Shown here: piece after piece, positions 1 through 18,208 of the stretch
Layout: the number at the start of each line of letters is the position of its first letter
How positions within the stretch are numbered: the first letter of the stretch is position 1
DNA from: a virus
Direction: 5' to 3' (one strand)
Length of the DNA stretch: 64,000 nt
Virus record (IMG/VR): IMGVR_UViG_3300020477_001012
Span: 96,001-160,000 of that record
The notes under the pieces: generated by a model
What the model was told of the DNA's origin: nothing
What the model saw: the letters and a program-made list of their open reading frames with translations, nothing else
Database searches by the model: none
Made by a program: the position numbers and the translations under genes

Positions 1-381
1 TTCTTGTGCCCGTCTCATGGAGAGGCTTGGTCCATTCCGTCGTTTGACGCCATGGCGTTTGGTAGTACGCCAATATGTAGCAACTTTGGAGGCCCCAGAG
101 AGTTTATTTCCGATGATGACAACACAGGGAAGTGTATTGATGGGGTTTATAGCGTGTGCAAGTGTTCCGATGCTGCTTTTCCAGACATGTTTACCGCCCG
201 TGAGTATTGGTTCTCACCATGCGAAAAAAAGATAAGAGAACAGATGCGGACGTACTACAATAGATACAAGTCAAACCCAATCAAATATAAGGCTCAAGCT
301 CAATCTGCGGGCATGAAAAGCGCCCAAAGGTTCTCATACGACATTATCGGAGAACAGATAAAGGGACTACTGAATGACTAA
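1..381 (+). CDS. Glycosyltransferase family 4 (GT-B), C-terminal part; 5' end lies outside the window
   Basis: HGEAWSIPSFDAMAFG matches the GT4 E-x7-E/D (EGFGLPxxEAMAxG) donor-binding motif; frame is open to position 1. Confidence 0.8.
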   Translation, partial: FLCPSHGEAWSIPSFDAMAFGSTPICSNFGGPREFISDDDNTGKCIDGVYSVCKCSDAAFPDMFTAREYWFSPCEKKIREQMRTYYNRYKSNPIKYKAQAQSAGMKSAQRFSYDIIGEQIKGLLND

Positions 382-1369
382 TAAAACCATTTCAATTATT
401 AATAAAGCCAATAGGGTGAAAGAGAAATATGACATATTAACTTTTGATACCCATGAAAGATATCAGACACAGCTCTGTAAGACGGGGCACAATTTTTATT
501 CATTTAGGTACGATGACTGCAAAGAGTGGGATGATACATATGCCCCAAAACCCAGCAACCATTACGTGCTTCCCAAGAACTCCATACTGAATGGCATTGA
601 CTTTGATTTTATTTTGAGTCAAAGTAAGTTTGGGCAGTTTCAGGTTTCACAACAGATAAACCAGACGTTAAGAATCCCCGTAGTGTCTTTGGAGCACACA
701 CTTCCTATTCCTAGCTGGCCCGCAGACCAAACCAATGCTTTCAGGCATATGCTTGGGGATATTAATGTCTTTATCTCTGAGTATTCAGTTGACAAGTGGG
801 ACATACAGGGTGATTACGAAGGCCCCTTTGTTGTTCACCACTCAGTGGACTCCGAGACATTCCAACCAATGGACATCGAAAAAAAACCGGTAGTTCTCAG
901 TGTGGTTAACGACTTTGTTAACAGAGACTACTGTTGCAACTATAGTGGCTGGCAGCGTATCACAGAGAACTTTGAAACAAGACTGGTCGGAAAAACAGAA
1001 GGATTATCCAAACCAGCCGCTTCAGTTAAAGAGTTGGCTGAGGAATATAATACGGCACAAATCTTTTTGAACACATCCACAATTAGCCCAGTCCCAACCT
1101 GCCTGCTTGAGGCCATGTCTTGTGGGTCTGCTGTGGTAACTACCGCAACATGCATGATACCTGAAATAATTGAAAACGGTGTCAATGGGTTTATGTCAAA
1201 CGACGAAGAGGAATTAAAAGGGTATATTAAACAATTGTTAGACGACGAGGACTTAAGAAACAAGATGGGCAAAGCGGCCAGAGAAACTATTTTGACTGAT
1301 TTTTCAGAAAGCAAGTTCATCGATACATGGAACAATATTTTTGACAAAGCTCATGGAGTTATTATATGA
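374..1369 (+). CDS. Glycosyltransferase family 4 (Glycos_transf_1)
   Basis: C-terminal FLNTS..SPVPTCLLEAMSCG...EIIENGVNGF...LRNKMGKAARE is typical of GT4. Confidence 0.85.
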   Translation: MTNKTISIINKANRVKEKYDILTFDTHERYQTQLCKTGHNFYSFRYDDCKEWDDTYAPKPSNHYVLPKNSILNGIDFDFILSQSKFGQFQVSQQINQTLRIPVVSLEHTLPIPSWPADQTNAFRHMLGDINVFISEYSVDKWDIQGDYEGPFVVHHSVDSETFQPMDIEKKPVVLSVVNDFVNRDYCCNYSGWQRITENFETRLVGKTEGLSKPAASVKELAEEYNTAQIFLNTSTISPVPTCLLEAMSCGSAVVTTATCMIPEIIENGVNGFMSNDEEELKGYIKQLLDDEDLRNKMGKAARETILTDFSESKFIDTWNNIFDKAHGVII

Positions 1370-1782
1370 AATTACACATTGTTAAACCGGGTCAAGAGTC
1401 CATCGAAAACTATACGAGGGTTGAAGCCTCTCCCAATTCCTTGGATATATCTACGGTGTCCGATAATGAATGCACCTCTATCGTGGCTAATGATATATTG
1501 GATCTTTTTAGCATTGATAATATCCCCAAGGTTTTGGAGCATCTGGCCACTAAAATGCGCATGGGGGGAGATCTGGTAATAGGCGGAACAGACGTTAGAC
1601 TGTTTTGTAAATATGTTATCAACGATCAGGTAGACGAGCTATCCGCTGCCCAGTTAATTGGCGTCTGCGAATCAATGACCACATGCGATCAAATTTCTAA
1701 TACTCTGCAATCTTTGGGTTTAAGGATCGCATCTTCTCAAATAAATGGCATGCACTACGAGATTAAAGTAACGAGAGGATAA
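1366..1782 (+). CDS. Hypothetical protein, truncated or degenerate class I methyltransferase-like
   Basis: DNECTSIVANDILDLF..IPKVLEHLATKMRMGGDLVI resembles the Methyltransf_11 post-motif-II region; no GxGxG motif I; ATGA overlap with the upstream gene. Confidence 0.45.
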   Translation: MKLHIVKPGQESIENYTRVEASPNSLDISTVSDNECTSIVANDILDLFSIDNIPKVLEHLATKMRMGGDLVIGGTDVRLFCKYVINDQVDELSAAQLIGVCESMTTCDQISNTLQSLGLRIASSQINGMHYEIKVTRG

Positions 1783-1784
1783 AT

Positions 1785-15732: not shown

Positions 15733-15735
15733 GCA

Positions 15736-16644
15736 ATGAAAATACTACTCACCGGAGCAACTGGCTTCTTAGGAAACAACTTGGAACCTGTGTTGTCAAA
15801 GAAACATGTGGTTATTGGACATGGTTCTAGCACATGGGATCTGAGAAACCAAATGCAAACTGAGTACTGGGTGGGGCATATCAAGCCAGACGCCATTATT
15901 CACGCGGCAGGATCTGTTGGGGGTATTGGGGCTAACCAAGAAAACCCCGGAAAGTTTATGTATGAAAATCTCATTATGGGGGCCAACCTCATTCACCAAG
16001 CGTATAAGCACAAAATTCCAAAATTTATACTCTTGGGCACTGTGTGTGCATACCCTAAATACACTCCGGTTCCGTTCGTGGAAGAGGCTTTGTGGGATGG
16101 GTACCCAGAAGAAACAAATGCCCCTTACGGCATCGCCAAGAAGACGTTAATGCGGCTAGTGGAAGCATATCACGAGCAGTATGGTCTGAATGGCGTTAAT
16201 CTCATCCCGGTCAACATGTATGGTCCACATGATCATTTTAATTTGACCAGCAGCCATGTTATACCCGCCCTAATACTGAAAGTAAAAAACGCAATACAGA
16301 ACAATAGCGAGTCTATCACTCTTTGGGGAACAGGGCAAGCGTCTAGAGAATTTCTATATGCCCCAGATTGCGCAGAGGCTATTTGTTTGGCAATTGAAAA
16401 AGATGTTTCACCCGAGCCAATAAATATTGGAACGGGCAGAGAAATCAAAATCTCTGAACTCATCGAAACAATAACTGACGTGATGGGCTACGACGGAAAG
16501 ATCATATATGACTCTACTAAGCCTGATGGGCAACCAAGGCGATGCCTAGATACCTCGCGGGCAAAGGAAAGGCTGGGCTTTGAAGCCAAGACTGGTCTTT
16601 TTGAGGGACTGACTAAAACAATAGAATGGTTCAGGGGGCAATAG
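15736..16644 (+). CDS. fcl: GDP-L-fucose synthase
   Basis: VGGIGAN, LGTVCAYPK, PEETNAPYGIAKK, SHVIPALI, WGTGQASREFLY and KPDGQPRRCLD. Confidence 0.93.
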   Translation: MKILLTGATGFLGNNLEPVLSKKHVVIGHGSSTWDLRNQMQTEYWVGHIKPDAIIHAAGSVGGIGANQENPGKFMYENLIMGANLIHQAYKHKIPKFILLGTVCAYPKYTPVPFVEEALWDGYPEETNAPYGIAKKTLMRLVEAYHEQYGLNGVNLIPVNMYGPHDHFNLTSSHVIPALILKVKNAIQNNSESITLWGTGQASREFLYAPDCAEAICLAIEKDVSPEPINIGTGREIKISELIETITDVMGYDGKIIYDSTKPDGQPRRCLDTSRAKERLGFEAKTGLFEGLTKTIEWFRGQ

Positions 16645-16645
16645 T

Positions 16646-18208
16646 ATGTGTGGTATATTTGGATCAATCAGTGACAATGCTCTTTCAGACATTTACGAGG
16701 GACTGTCTAGGCTAGAGTACCGTGGATATGACAGCTTTGGCTATGTCCGAATTGACAACGGAAAGGTATATACATGTAGGCATCTTGGACCTATAGAAAA
16801 ATCTTCGTTTACCGATGAGGCTGAGTTGGCTGTTGGGCATGTTCGGTGGGCCACCAACGGTGAAGTTACCCATGCAAACACCCACCCGCAGGCAACTGAC
16901 GGGTTCTATGTGGTTCATAACGGTGTAATTGAAAACGCACCGCCACACATGCTTGATACCAAGTGGCTGGCAAACCTAATATCTTTATGCAATGGGAAGC
17001 CCAAAGAAATATACCATAAAGTACAAGGGGACAACGCCTTTGTGTTTGTTAGCGAGAACACCGAAGAGGTGTGGTGTGTTGCGAAAGGGACCAAGAGACT
17101 ATTTATAACCCCCAACGGCTATGTGAGTAGTGATTTAAACGCGCTATCTGGTTTTAGTAAATCTGCGTGGATATTAGAGAACGGTGTATGCGGGCTAGAT
17201 TCAGAAGAGCTGCCGTATGGCAGGGATGCGATACACGTCCCAAAGACAGACGATTTATTATTGAGTTCGGGCCATCGAATGCTCGCGGAGATCAAAGAGC
17301 AGTGCGACCTAAAGAGCTTAAGATGGCATAACATAGAAACCGACTTAGACATAGTGGCAACGGGAAGCAGCCTGCACGCAGCTATGTTTGGGGCATACGC
17401 TTTAGAAAAACGAAAATCTATCAAGGTGAGATGCATACATGCCAGTCAAGCCAAATATAAATCAATAGGACCAAACATTCTTGCCATAAGCCAAAGCGGA
17501 GAAACAAAAGACGTGGTTAACGCTATGCAGGGAAGGGATTTTATGTGCATTACAAATAATCCTCATTCCACGCTCTCTGGCATGTCTACAAGTCCCATTG
17601 ATATGTACGCAGGAATAGAACGGGCCGTGGCGGCAACTAAAACCTTCACTGCGTCGTGTATGAAGTTGTGCCAATCATCTGGGGTATCTTGTGGGGAAAT
17701 GACCGAATGTATTGCAGACCTAATTCACAGAGTAGATGAAATCAAACAAATTGCTGACAGGATCATGGGATATGAGCACTTTCTCTTTCTTGGAGACAGG
17801 CATAATTACCCCATAGCTCTTGAGGGCGCTCTCAAGTTTAAAGAGGTGGCTTATGTTCACGCAGAAGGAATGCCATCCTCTGAGATGAAACATGGTCCAA
17901 TTGCCTTGGTAGACTACAGGGTTCCAAGCATGTTTGTTATTACAGAGGGAGTGTCGCCAGAAACACTTGCCAATATGCAAGAAATTAAATGCCGAAAAGG
18001 GCTGGTTCTAGCCATTACCCATGATTCCATTAAGTCAGACATAGAAAAGATAGCAGACATAGTGTTCTCGTGCAAGGACACGGGAGAGGAATTTTCCCAG
18101 TCCTTGGTGTTAAATGTTGTGCTGCAATTGTTATCTTACTACATAGCAGTGGAACGAGGGATAAACCCAGACCGCCCCCGTAATCTCGCTAAATGCGTGA
18201 CAGTATAG
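16646..18208 (+). CDS. glmS: Glutamine--fructose-6-phosphate transaminase (compact)
   Basis: MCGIFG N-terminal Cys, LEYRGYDS, GHVRWAT, VHNGVIEN, SQSGET, VAATKTFT, ALEGALKFKE, EMKHGPIAL and PRNLAKCVTV. Confidence 0.93.
   Translation: MCGIFGSISDNALSDIYEGLSRLEYRGYDSFGYVRIDNGKVYTCRHLGPIEKSSFTDEAELAVGHVRWATNGEVTHANTHPQATDGFYVVHNGVIENAPPHMLDTKWLANLISLCNGKPKEIYHKVQGDNAFVFVSENTEEVWCVAKGTKRLFITPNGYVSSDLNALSGFSKSAWILENGVCGLDSEELPYGRDAIHVPKTDDLLLSSGHRMLAEIKEQCDLKSLRWHNIETDLDIVATGSSLHAAMFGAYALEKRKSIKVRCIHASQAKYKSIGPNILAISQSGETKDVVNAMQGRDFMCITNNPHSTLSGMSTSPIDMYAGIERAVAATKTFTASCMKLCQSSGVSCGEMTECIADLIHRVDEIKQIADRIMGYEHFLFLGDRHNYPIALEGALKFKEVAYVHAEGMPSSEMKHGPIALVDYRVPSMFVITEGVSPETLANMQEIKCRKGLVLAITHDSIKSDIEKIADIVFSCKDTGEEFSQSLVLNVVLQLLSYYIAVERGINPDRPRNLAKCVTV

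Follow-up and report, generated by a model that had tools for sequence, protein, structure and literature searches.

Why would a phage carry some 18 kb of sugar genes, and on what would the resulting glycan be built? This question is raised by IMG/VR virus record IMGVR_UViG_3300020477_001012 (173,842 bp; CheckV completeness, 100%), of which bases 96001 to 160000 form the 64,000-nt window analyzed here. A glycan biosynthesis block occupies the left end of this window, at positions 1 to 18208. Coordinates below refer to the window unless marked as genome coordinates. The record is that of a phage, with a portal gene at genome 13138 to 15141 and a TerL gene at genome 15182 to 17173. We read the locus as an autonomous, cytoplasmic system that would glycosylate the phage's own virion proteins, an assignment to which we give a little short of an even chance and in which the acceptor is the predicted element.

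Within the window, the block comprises 22 open reading frames (ORFs), all on the plus strand and tightly packed (Table 1). A first-pass annotation of the window had described about 22 co-directional genes with at least five glycosyltransferases, next to RmlB, FdtA, two DegT aminotransferases, short-chain dehydrogenase/reductase (SDR) enzymes, Fcl, GlmS, two methyltransferases, and an ATP-grasp enzyme. Family calls by Pfam, NCBIfam, and PHROGs, together with PDB profile searches, bear out this list, with the glycosyltransferases now numbering six or seven and the SDR enzymes four. Selected proteins were assigned by AlphaFold2 (AF2) folding and Foldseek. The enzyme set is complete and intact; both DegT genes keep the SF[HY]xxK lysine motif, and the shortened GlmS retains its N-terminal Cys (it starts MCGIFG). 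For the SDR enzyme at 4154 to 5050, the top NCBIfam models score nearly equally, each of them below its cut-off. The 292-aa protein gave no usable PDB profile match, and its fold was assigned by structure prediction instead, with MshA, PimA, and BshA as Foldseek matches (TM, 0.5 to 0.58). The 256-aa core protein had no match in Pfam, PHROG, or PDB profile searches, and the LicC-like nucleotidyltransferase has atlas neighbors with an NTP_transf_3 domain. A phosphocholine pathway formed by the latter enzyme and the 138-aa protein, which resembles phosphoethanolamine N-methyltransferase (PMT), was considered but found no support, as LicD gave no match in the genome while its positive control responded, and the PMT match reaches an E value of only 0.02.

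The lack of integral membrane glycan machinery, also pointed out in the first-pass annotation, extends to the whole contig. All ORFs of at least 80 aa were scanned with a Kyte-Doolittle window, which is not a trained predictor. On the 174-kb contig, every ORF longer than 142 aa has at most one hydrophobic segment, and the same holds for each of 302 ORFs from the corresponding variable regions of 11 relatives (see below). The initiating transferase family Bac_transf (PF02397) had no match in the whole genome, with its control responding in 10 of 14 genomes. WecA-type initiating enzymes are polytopic and are excluded by the hydrophobicity scan, which returned no polytopic ORF above 142 aa on the contig. 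Likewise, there is no multi-pass candidate for a flippase, polymerase, or ABC permease in the genome or in the 11 relatives, and no polytopic candidate on the contig for the GtrA/GtrB/GtrC-type membrane proteins of serotype-converting modules. The cluster had been expected to continue beyond the left edge, possibly with the missing export genes. It does continue, over three more genes to its start at genome 92952 directly after SSB, but the whole record was read and holds no export genes there. Because these scans cover the complete record, the flippase, polymerase, and initiating transferase are missing from the genome itself and not just located beyond the window. Bacterial surface-glycan loci of similar size normally include a flippase or ABC transporter; the lack of membrane machinery is a property of this phage lineage.

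Relatives were recruited with the C-terminal half of DnaE, which yielded 270 IMG/VR contigs, and gene order was read by tblastn; all per-locus counts refer to the best 80 of these 270. This comparison of gene content across related phages, as suggested by the first-pass annotation, revises its picture of a single cluster. The gene list was right, but a two-part structure had been overlooked, consisting of a syntenic, conserved seven-gene core and a variable island that makes up most of positions 4154 to 18208. The conserved order reads DnaE-N, exonuclease, DnaE-C, SSB, GT562, GT377, GT331, the 138-aa gene, the 256-aa gene, the nucleotidyltransferase, and the 292-aa GT-B enzyme, and each of these genes is carried by 41 to 75 of the 80 loci. 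Within the core, which holds four GT-B transferases, the LicC-like nucleotidyltransferase, and two unassigned proteins (138 and 256 aa), GT562 was found in 75 loci, GT377 in 66 (and in 12/12 large records), GT331 in 63 (mean identity, 52%), the nucleotidyltransferase gene in 55, and the 138-aa protein in 41. A host/phage chimera is ruled out by the phage genes on both flanks and by this synteny in dozens of viral contigs (the same gene order in 63 to 75 of the 80), which disposes of a caveat of the first-pass annotation.

Behind the core, content and length vary. The interval from DnaE-C to the gene for a 259-aa right-flank protein, present in 16/16 records, ranges from 7.7 to 30.5 kb in these records and measures 22.8 kb in the source phage. 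In some relatives (at least five loci), the core is followed at once by homologues of positions 18222 to 20541 and then by the structural module. Since the core directly meets the right-flank genes in these phages, the system in its minimal form measures about 6.5 kb and lacks sugar-nucleotide genes. Clustering of the island ORFs from 11 relatives and the source phage gave 118 families, 70 of them singletons. Families that are not shared include GT2 enzymes, many S-adenosylmethionine-dependent methyltransferases, CMP-sugar synthetases, RmlA-type transferases, formyltransferases, and GT47, as well as PIG-L, NeuB, UDP-GlcNAc 2-epimerase, and Kdo-8-phosphate synthase (Kdo, 3-deoxy-D-manno-octulosonate). 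Because both size and families vary at a fixed site, positions 4154 to 18208 are one allele of a rare-sugar island that is hypervariable and follows the shared core. The sugar-nucleotide genes of the window are accessory, and the seven-gene core is common to the phage family.

The block is opened by GT562, a 562-aa GT1 enzyme (genome 92952 to 94640) whose gene overlaps the SSB stop codon by 4 nt. Its mean identity across 68 loci is 59%, compared to 57% and 56% for the two DnaE halves. In protein databases, GT562 has 3,618 matches at an E value of ≤0.001, the best 120 of which share 72 to 98% identity. One homologue, of 937 aa, carries an intein of about 355 aa (Pfam Intein_splicing and LAGLIDADG_3), which separates residues 128 and 129 and immediately precedes the invariant MPTVDARPQ motif. 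Conservation at the level of the polymerase, together with the intein, accords more with a need of the phage itself than with an optional moron acting on the host. In structure, GT562 is matched best by the glycosyltransferase B736L of chlorovirus NY-2A (3oy2; E, 6e-19), and many phage and giant-virus GT4 enzymes match as well. Actinophage TJE1 is the sole GenBank phage with a homologue (23% identity), which sits with nucleotidyltransferase, epimerase, and methyltransferase genes immediately upstream of the terminase.

Judging from gene content, we propose that glycan assembly would be phage-autonomous, fully soluble, and organized in two layers. The seven core genes after DnaE and SSB would use common sugar nucleotides of the host to build a conserved oligosaccharide, onto which the products of the variable layer (positions 4154 to 18208) would supply and attach rare sugars. 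As to the predicted sugars, the RmlB-like dehydratase may provide a 6-deoxyhexose and Fcl an L-fucose-type sugar, while the DesI-like DegT enzyme would lead to a 4-amino-4,6-dideoxyhexose and FdtA with its DegT partner to a 3-amino-3,6-dideoxyhexose. The ATP-grasp enzyme would account for N-acylation, the two methyltransferases for O-methylation, and GlmS for hexosamine supply. The predicted product is accordingly a complex glycan that carries methyl and N-acyl groups and many amino-deoxy sugars and would extend a conserved inner oligosaccharide; the order of assembly would follow the two layers. Because no step needs a membrane, cytoplasmic assembly on a phage-made acceptor appears most likely. 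Such an acceptor, most plausibly the virion proteins, is favored by the solubility of the enzymes, by core conservation and the intein, by the hypervariability at a fixed site, and by the apparent lack of a tyrosine integrase (no match in the whole 174-kb record, with a responding positive control; serine recombinases were not searched). It is also favored by the chlorovirus enzyme as best structural match of GT562 and by the location of the only GenBank phage homologue in an actinophage cassette adjoining the terminase.

The acceptors would be exposed virion proteins, for instance the Ser-Gly (SG)-rich giant fiber proteins encoded on the converging strand. SG is the most overrepresented dipeptide in the minus-strand structural ORFs, with an observed-to-expected ratio of 1.83 versus 1.02 in the plus-strand ORFs. 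The 4148-aa giant has orthologues of 4166 to 4545 aa in relatives (about 42 to 54% identity). In this family, comparing four orthologues, SG serines are conserved at 0.54 versus 0.37 for other serines (p, 1e-5), and the SG excess recurs, clearly so in three of the four. In the 1348-aa fiber, SG spacing is periodic at 3, 18, and 37 residues, and only the N-terminal 445 aa are conserved and alignable in relatives. The enrichment and conservation are only suggestive as a pointer to glycosylated virion proteins. In its most specific form, the proposal describes a two-layer coat in which strain-specific, O-antigen-like rare sugars on a core oligosaccharide would be built in the cytoplasm on SG sites of the giant fibers; we regard this form as a tentative possibility. 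Its outer layer would contain amino-dideoxyhexoses and fucose, with nonulosonic acids or Kdo in relatives, a composition that we put forward just as tentatively.

These giants lie to the right of the small flank genes, where the opposite strand encodes proteins of 1371, 1609, 4148, 2300, and 1348 aa with almost no family matches, plausibly the tail module. The first four follow one another at positions 21631 to 52403 (minus strand), with 184- and 625-aa ORFs between the second and third. PHROG searches with the 1371-, 1609-, 4148-, 184-, and 625-aa proteins gave no match, nor did a Pfam search with the 1371-aa protein.

Virus-encoded soluble glycosyltransferases, a trait of virus-autonomous virion glycosylation, are present in the source phage. 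The closest parallel in enzyme content is offered by giant viruses (Mimivirus/Megavirinae and chloroviruses), which likewise encode a 4,6-dehydratase, an epimerase/reductase, a pyridoxal phosphate-dependent aminotransferase, and a GlmS-type glutamine:fructose-6-phosphate amidotransferase, in addition to several soluble transferases and methyltransferases (PMC9614988). Moreover, the content of the fibril glycosylation gene clusters is clade specific in Megavirinae (PMC9614988), a pattern that the fixed-site variability of the present island resembles, and a chlorovirus enzyme, B736L, best matches GT562. In contrast, the source is a tailed phage and not a member of the Nucleocytoviricota, its epimerase/reductase is homologous to Fcl proper and is not a UGER of the L780 type, and a conserved core stands beside a variable island at one locus, as known here at the level of genes.

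Among phages, mycobacteriophages Che8, Corndog, and Myrna are reported to modify subunits of the capsid and tail tube with soluble glycosyltransferases, in some cases together with a methyltransferase (Freeman et al. 2023, cited in PMC10877033 and PMC12619734). These systems resemble the present one in using soluble phage-encoded enzymes and no export machinery. A further link to actinophages is provided by TJE1 and its GT562 homologue. To our knowledge, mycobacteriophage glycosylation cassettes contain no sugar-nucleotide pathways; the source phage differs from them in its at least 25 genes, their location on the replication strand, rare-sugar synthesis, the family-wide core, and its marine origin. 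Flagellin and pilin O-glycosylation islands (Pse/Leg/viosamine) are cytoplasmic, flippase free, and hypervariable between strains, and combine DegT enzymes, SDR dehydratases, ATP-grasp enzymes, methyltransferases, and nonulosonic acid genes. The source phage shares the DegT, SDR dehydratase, ATP-grasp, and methyltransferase set and the absence of a flippase; it differs in that the system is phage encoded and that no Maf/MptE-like transferase was found. The serine-rich-repeat adhesin systems (GtfA/B and GT-D) are marked by a GtfA-type glycosyltransferase with a DUF1975 insert and by a DUF1792 GT-D enzyme. In the source phage, a GT-D-like domain scores above the PF22882 cut-off, PF08759 had no match, and GT562 matches Gtf1 (5e9t) weakly (E, 0.088), the latter being absent from the top fold matches listed. 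In short, autonomous virus glycosylation (giant viruses, mycobacteriophages) and large glycan gene sets (cyanophages) were already known. What is new is the two-layer architecture, its scale of at least 25 genes, its spread through a large marine phage family that is uncultured, and the lack of membrane components in that whole family.

The strongest competing explanation, a serious one although we judge it less likely than virion glycosylation, is that during infection the enzymes alter a glycoconjugate of the host. They could extend host-primed undecaprenyl-pyrophosphate sugars for export to lipopolysaccharide or capsule by Wzx or ABC transporters and ligases of the host, or they could glycosylate a host protein in the cytoplasm, for instance flagellin or pilin. 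Either route might block superinfection or alter recognition of the infected cell. Soluble or peripheral GT4 and GT2 enzymes are the norm in O-antigen assembly, and the glycan genes lie on the replication strand, packed against replication genes. The islands of relatives include Kdo-8-phosphate synthase, CMP-sugar synthetases, and NeuB. Furthermore, T4-like cyanophages with comparable clusters (S-SCSM2R, S-SCSM1, and P-SSM2, with at least 22 cell wall genes and up to 13 glycosyltransferases) are conventionally read as modifying the host cell wall or surface (PMC12801897). Like the source phage, these phages are marine and carry at least 20 glycan genes, including glycosyltransferases, epimerases, TagD-like cytidylyltransferases, and Kdo genes, whose function is putative (PMC12801897). 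They belong to an unrelated lineage, though: the source phage has a DnaE replicase and a TerL like that of Bacillus and Microcystis phages, and psbA was not found in it. The core-plus-island layout and the family-wide lack of membrane proteins are seen in the source phage family, the comparison with cyanophages being one of gene content. Evidence against host remodeling comes from the genome and the islands of 11 relatives, which lack Gtr-type proteins as well as any initiating transferase, flippase, polymerase, or ligase, and from the negative searches for a tyrosine integrase and a Maf-type flagellin transferase. In addition, a core conserved like the polymerase, as judged by GT562 identity, is unusual for accessory host-modifying genes.

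Several points also weigh against virion glycosylation. None of the known families of protein O- and N-glycosyltransferases came up, the searches for Maf/MptE-like transferases (PF01973; control responding in six genomes) and for the canonical GT-D family PF08759 returning no match. GT4, GT2, and GT-B enzymes are equally suited to lipid-linked, protein, and small-molecule acceptors. Unlike in mycobacteriophages, the cluster is located on the replication strand and not within the virion operon, and the Kdo and nonulosonic acid genes of relatives stand for classic cell envelope sugars. Host lipid carriers and host flippases could serve soluble phage transferases, and cytoplasmic host proteins such as flagellin need no membrane parts either. 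Finally, the SG enrichment is concentrated in three proteins, and because SG flanks are hydrophobic and the spacing is partly periodic, SG could equally be a fold motif instead of a sequon.

It is improbable that the product is a nonvirion glycoconjugate of the cytoplasm or membrane, be it a soluble oligosaccharide, a phospholipid-replacing glycolipid, or a small molecule glycosylated for host takeover. The solved structures nearest in fold to GT562 and to the 292-aa enzyme do include MshA, BshA, PimA, and sucrose- and trehalose-phosphate synthases, which act on small or lipid acceptors, and the LicC-like enzyme could activate a phospho-alcohol instead of a sugar. However, five conserved transferases next to a rare-sugar island of such variability suggest a polymer of the surface type that diversifies, rather than a metabolite, and no lipid synthesis genes lie nearby. 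Least of all do we expect an antirestriction hypermodification of phage DNA by the glycan, or at least by what the GT562-led core makes, DNA being the acceptor that the first-pass annotation had already ranked as less plausible: GT562 directly follows DnaE and SSB, with the SSB overlap kept in all relatives, a T4 gp1-like dNMP kinase is encoded in the same replication module, and phage glycosyltransferases place diverse glycans on 5-hydroxymethylcytosine DNA (10.1101/2023.12.21.572611), but searches for a ThyA-family hydroxymethylase (PF00303) and a C5-cytosine methylase (PF00145) were negative with a normal ThyX present, the ten or so transferases and the amino-, methyl-, and acyl-sugar pathways go far beyond any known DNA glycan, and the structural neighbors of GT562 among the matches listed (about 32 of at least 500) are GT4 enzymes with no T4 DNA glucosyltransferase. 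A search for Tet/JBP (PF12851) gave no match, its positive control being silent as well.

Table 1. Features of the glycan block, its right flank, and the candidate acceptors (window coordinates)
Feature	Position	Strand	Evidence and remarks
GT1/GT4-type glycosyltransferase (GT377), C-terminal third of 377 aa	1..381	+	Full gene at genome 95248-96381; Pfam Glycos_transf_1, E 3.7e-6; core
GT1/GT4-type glycosyltransferase (GT331), 331 aa	374..1369	+	Pfam Glycos_transf_1, E 3e-18; core
138-aa core protein, possible class I methyltransferase-fold remnant	1366..1782	+	Weak PDB profile match, phosphoethanolamine N-methyltransferase, E 0.02
256-aa core protein, Cys-rich N terminus, possibly GT-A-like by sequence pattern	1785..2555	+	In 12/12 large records
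LicC/IspD/GlmU-type nucleotidyltransferase, 248 aa	2542..3288	+	PDB profile 1jyk (CTP:phosphocholine cytidylyltransferase), E 6.6e-10; core
GT-B fold glycosyltransferase, 292 aa	3288..4166	+	AF2 pLDDT 90.5; Foldseek probability 1; semi-core
SDR epimerase or 4,6-dehydratase, 298 aa (GalE/LegB/RmlB-like)	4154..5050	+	Pfam Epimerase, E 2e-58
Glycosyltransferase candidate, 256 aa	5011..5781	+	phrog_14945 glycosyltransferase, E 2.8e-14
FkbM-family methyltransferase	5794..6447	+	Pfam Methyltransf_21, E 4e-20
GT-A-like candidate, 289 aa, DSD motif	6444..7313	+	Weak Pfam Nucleotid_trans, E 0.0046, below cut-off
NDP-glucose 4,6-dehydratase (RmlB-like), 297 aa	7310..8203	+	TIGR01181, 316 bits, E 3e-94; below 365-bit cut-off
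GT2 glycosyltransferase	8211..9104	+	Pfam Glycos_transf_2, E 3e-7
DegT-family sugar 4-aminotransferase (DesI/perosamine synthase-like)	9101..10228	+	Pfam E 3e-68; PDB 2po3, 3bn1, E 1e-30
SDR epimerase/reductase, 339 aa	10244..11263	+	Pfam Epimerase, E 2.5e-44
ATP-grasp ligase, putative amino-sugar N-acylation	11273..12424	+	Pfam ATPgrasp_Ter, E 4e-15
GT-D-like glycosyltransferase candidate	12391..13260	+	Pfam PF22882, 36.8 bits vs cut-off 27
Class I O-methyltransferase (TylF/CmcI-like)	13291..13860	+	Pfam Methyltransf_24, E 5.5e-14
Second DegT-family aminotransferase, putative FdtB/QdtB-like role, adjoins FdtA	13808..14803	+	Pfam E 1.4e-29; SFYPTK lysine motif
FdtA-type 3,4-ketoisomerase	14763..15155	+	Pfam FdtA, E 4.6e-32
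187-aa protein, Thr/Pro-rich mucin-like C-terminal tail, between FdtA and Fcl	15169..15732	+	No family match
GDP-L-fucose synthase-like epimerase/reductase (Fcl)	15736..16644	+	NF047922, 300 bits; PDB 7ll6, E 1.2e-65
GlmS-type glutamine:fructose-6-phosphate amidotransferase, shortened to 520 aa	16646..18208	+	TIGR01135, 338 bits; closes glycan block
Right flank, five small conserved backbone genes (not glycan genes), including HNH/DUF559-like endonuclease	18222..20848	+	
4148-aa Ser-Gly-rich giant protein, candidate acceptor	33023..45469	-	SG 96 vs 34.5 expected
1348-aa fiber-like protein, SG-rich, periodic repeats, candidate acceptor	59316..63362	-	SG 55 vs 19.9 expected

The plus-strand replication module upstream of the block encodes DnaB, primase, RecA, RNR, PhoH, ThyX, and a DnaE that is split around an exonuclease gene. 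The two DnaE halves (PHP/palm and finger/OB) are separated by the RNase T-type exonuclease gene and a 160-aa ORF (genome 88251 to 92581), a layout kept in 80/80 related loci. Also in this module (genome 81797 to 84000) lie genes for a trypsin-like peptidase and for a sulfatase-like DUF1501 protein. Smaller sugar loci upstream comprise genes for a cytidylyltransferase, DUF4422, Glf, a UDP-glucose dehydrogenase-like enzyme, another GT1, and a phosphomannose isomerase-type cupin. One of these loci, at genome 85258 to 88200 just upstream of DnaE-N, is itself variable, with a 335-aa ORF, DUF4422, and UDP-galactopyranose mutase, and occurs in only 2 to 8 of the 80 related loci. The GC content amounts to 0.38 to 0.45 in the glycan block and 0.42 to 0.51 in the rest of the contig. 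The early region contains four tRNA genes and a permuted (two-piece) tmRNA gene at genome 53226 to 53531 (Rfam RF04321, 91 bits).

A megablast search of GenBank phages returned no close cultured relative, and a 396-aa minus-strand ORF, tried as a capsid candidate, had no tblastn match among GenBank phages. The nearest GenBank TerL proteins, at about 26% identity, belong to phages of Bacillus (Stills, Slash, and the SPbeta group) and Microcystis. The Moraphage lineage (PMC12619734) was considered and set apart by polymerase type, as it has a family B polymerase in the trees of that paper versus DnaE here. GTDB contigs with GT562 occur in metagenome-assembled genomes (MAGs) labeled Verrucomicrobiales, Flavobacteriales, SAR202, and Thermoplasmatales. 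The placement of contigs from this phage family in such bins is probably mis-binning, and the labels are therefore no reliable guide to the host.

The locus offers a compact toolkit, soluble and free of membrane parts, for making and transferring rare sugars, and its opening enzyme, GT562, has thousands of environmental homologues. If the virion reading is true, the particles of a widespread marine phage family would bear strain-specific sugar coats made without host glycosylation machinery. A two-layer coat as outlined above would parallel, in tailed phages, the fibril glycosylation of Mimivirus and would imply that marine phage particles display diversifying glycan serotypes. A glycan on the virion would bear on persistence in seawater, escape from enzymes or nonproductive adsorption, recognition, and the diversification of viral "serotypes." Should the glycan go to the host envelope or to DNA instead, the core shared by the family would still mark an unrecognized essential step of infection.

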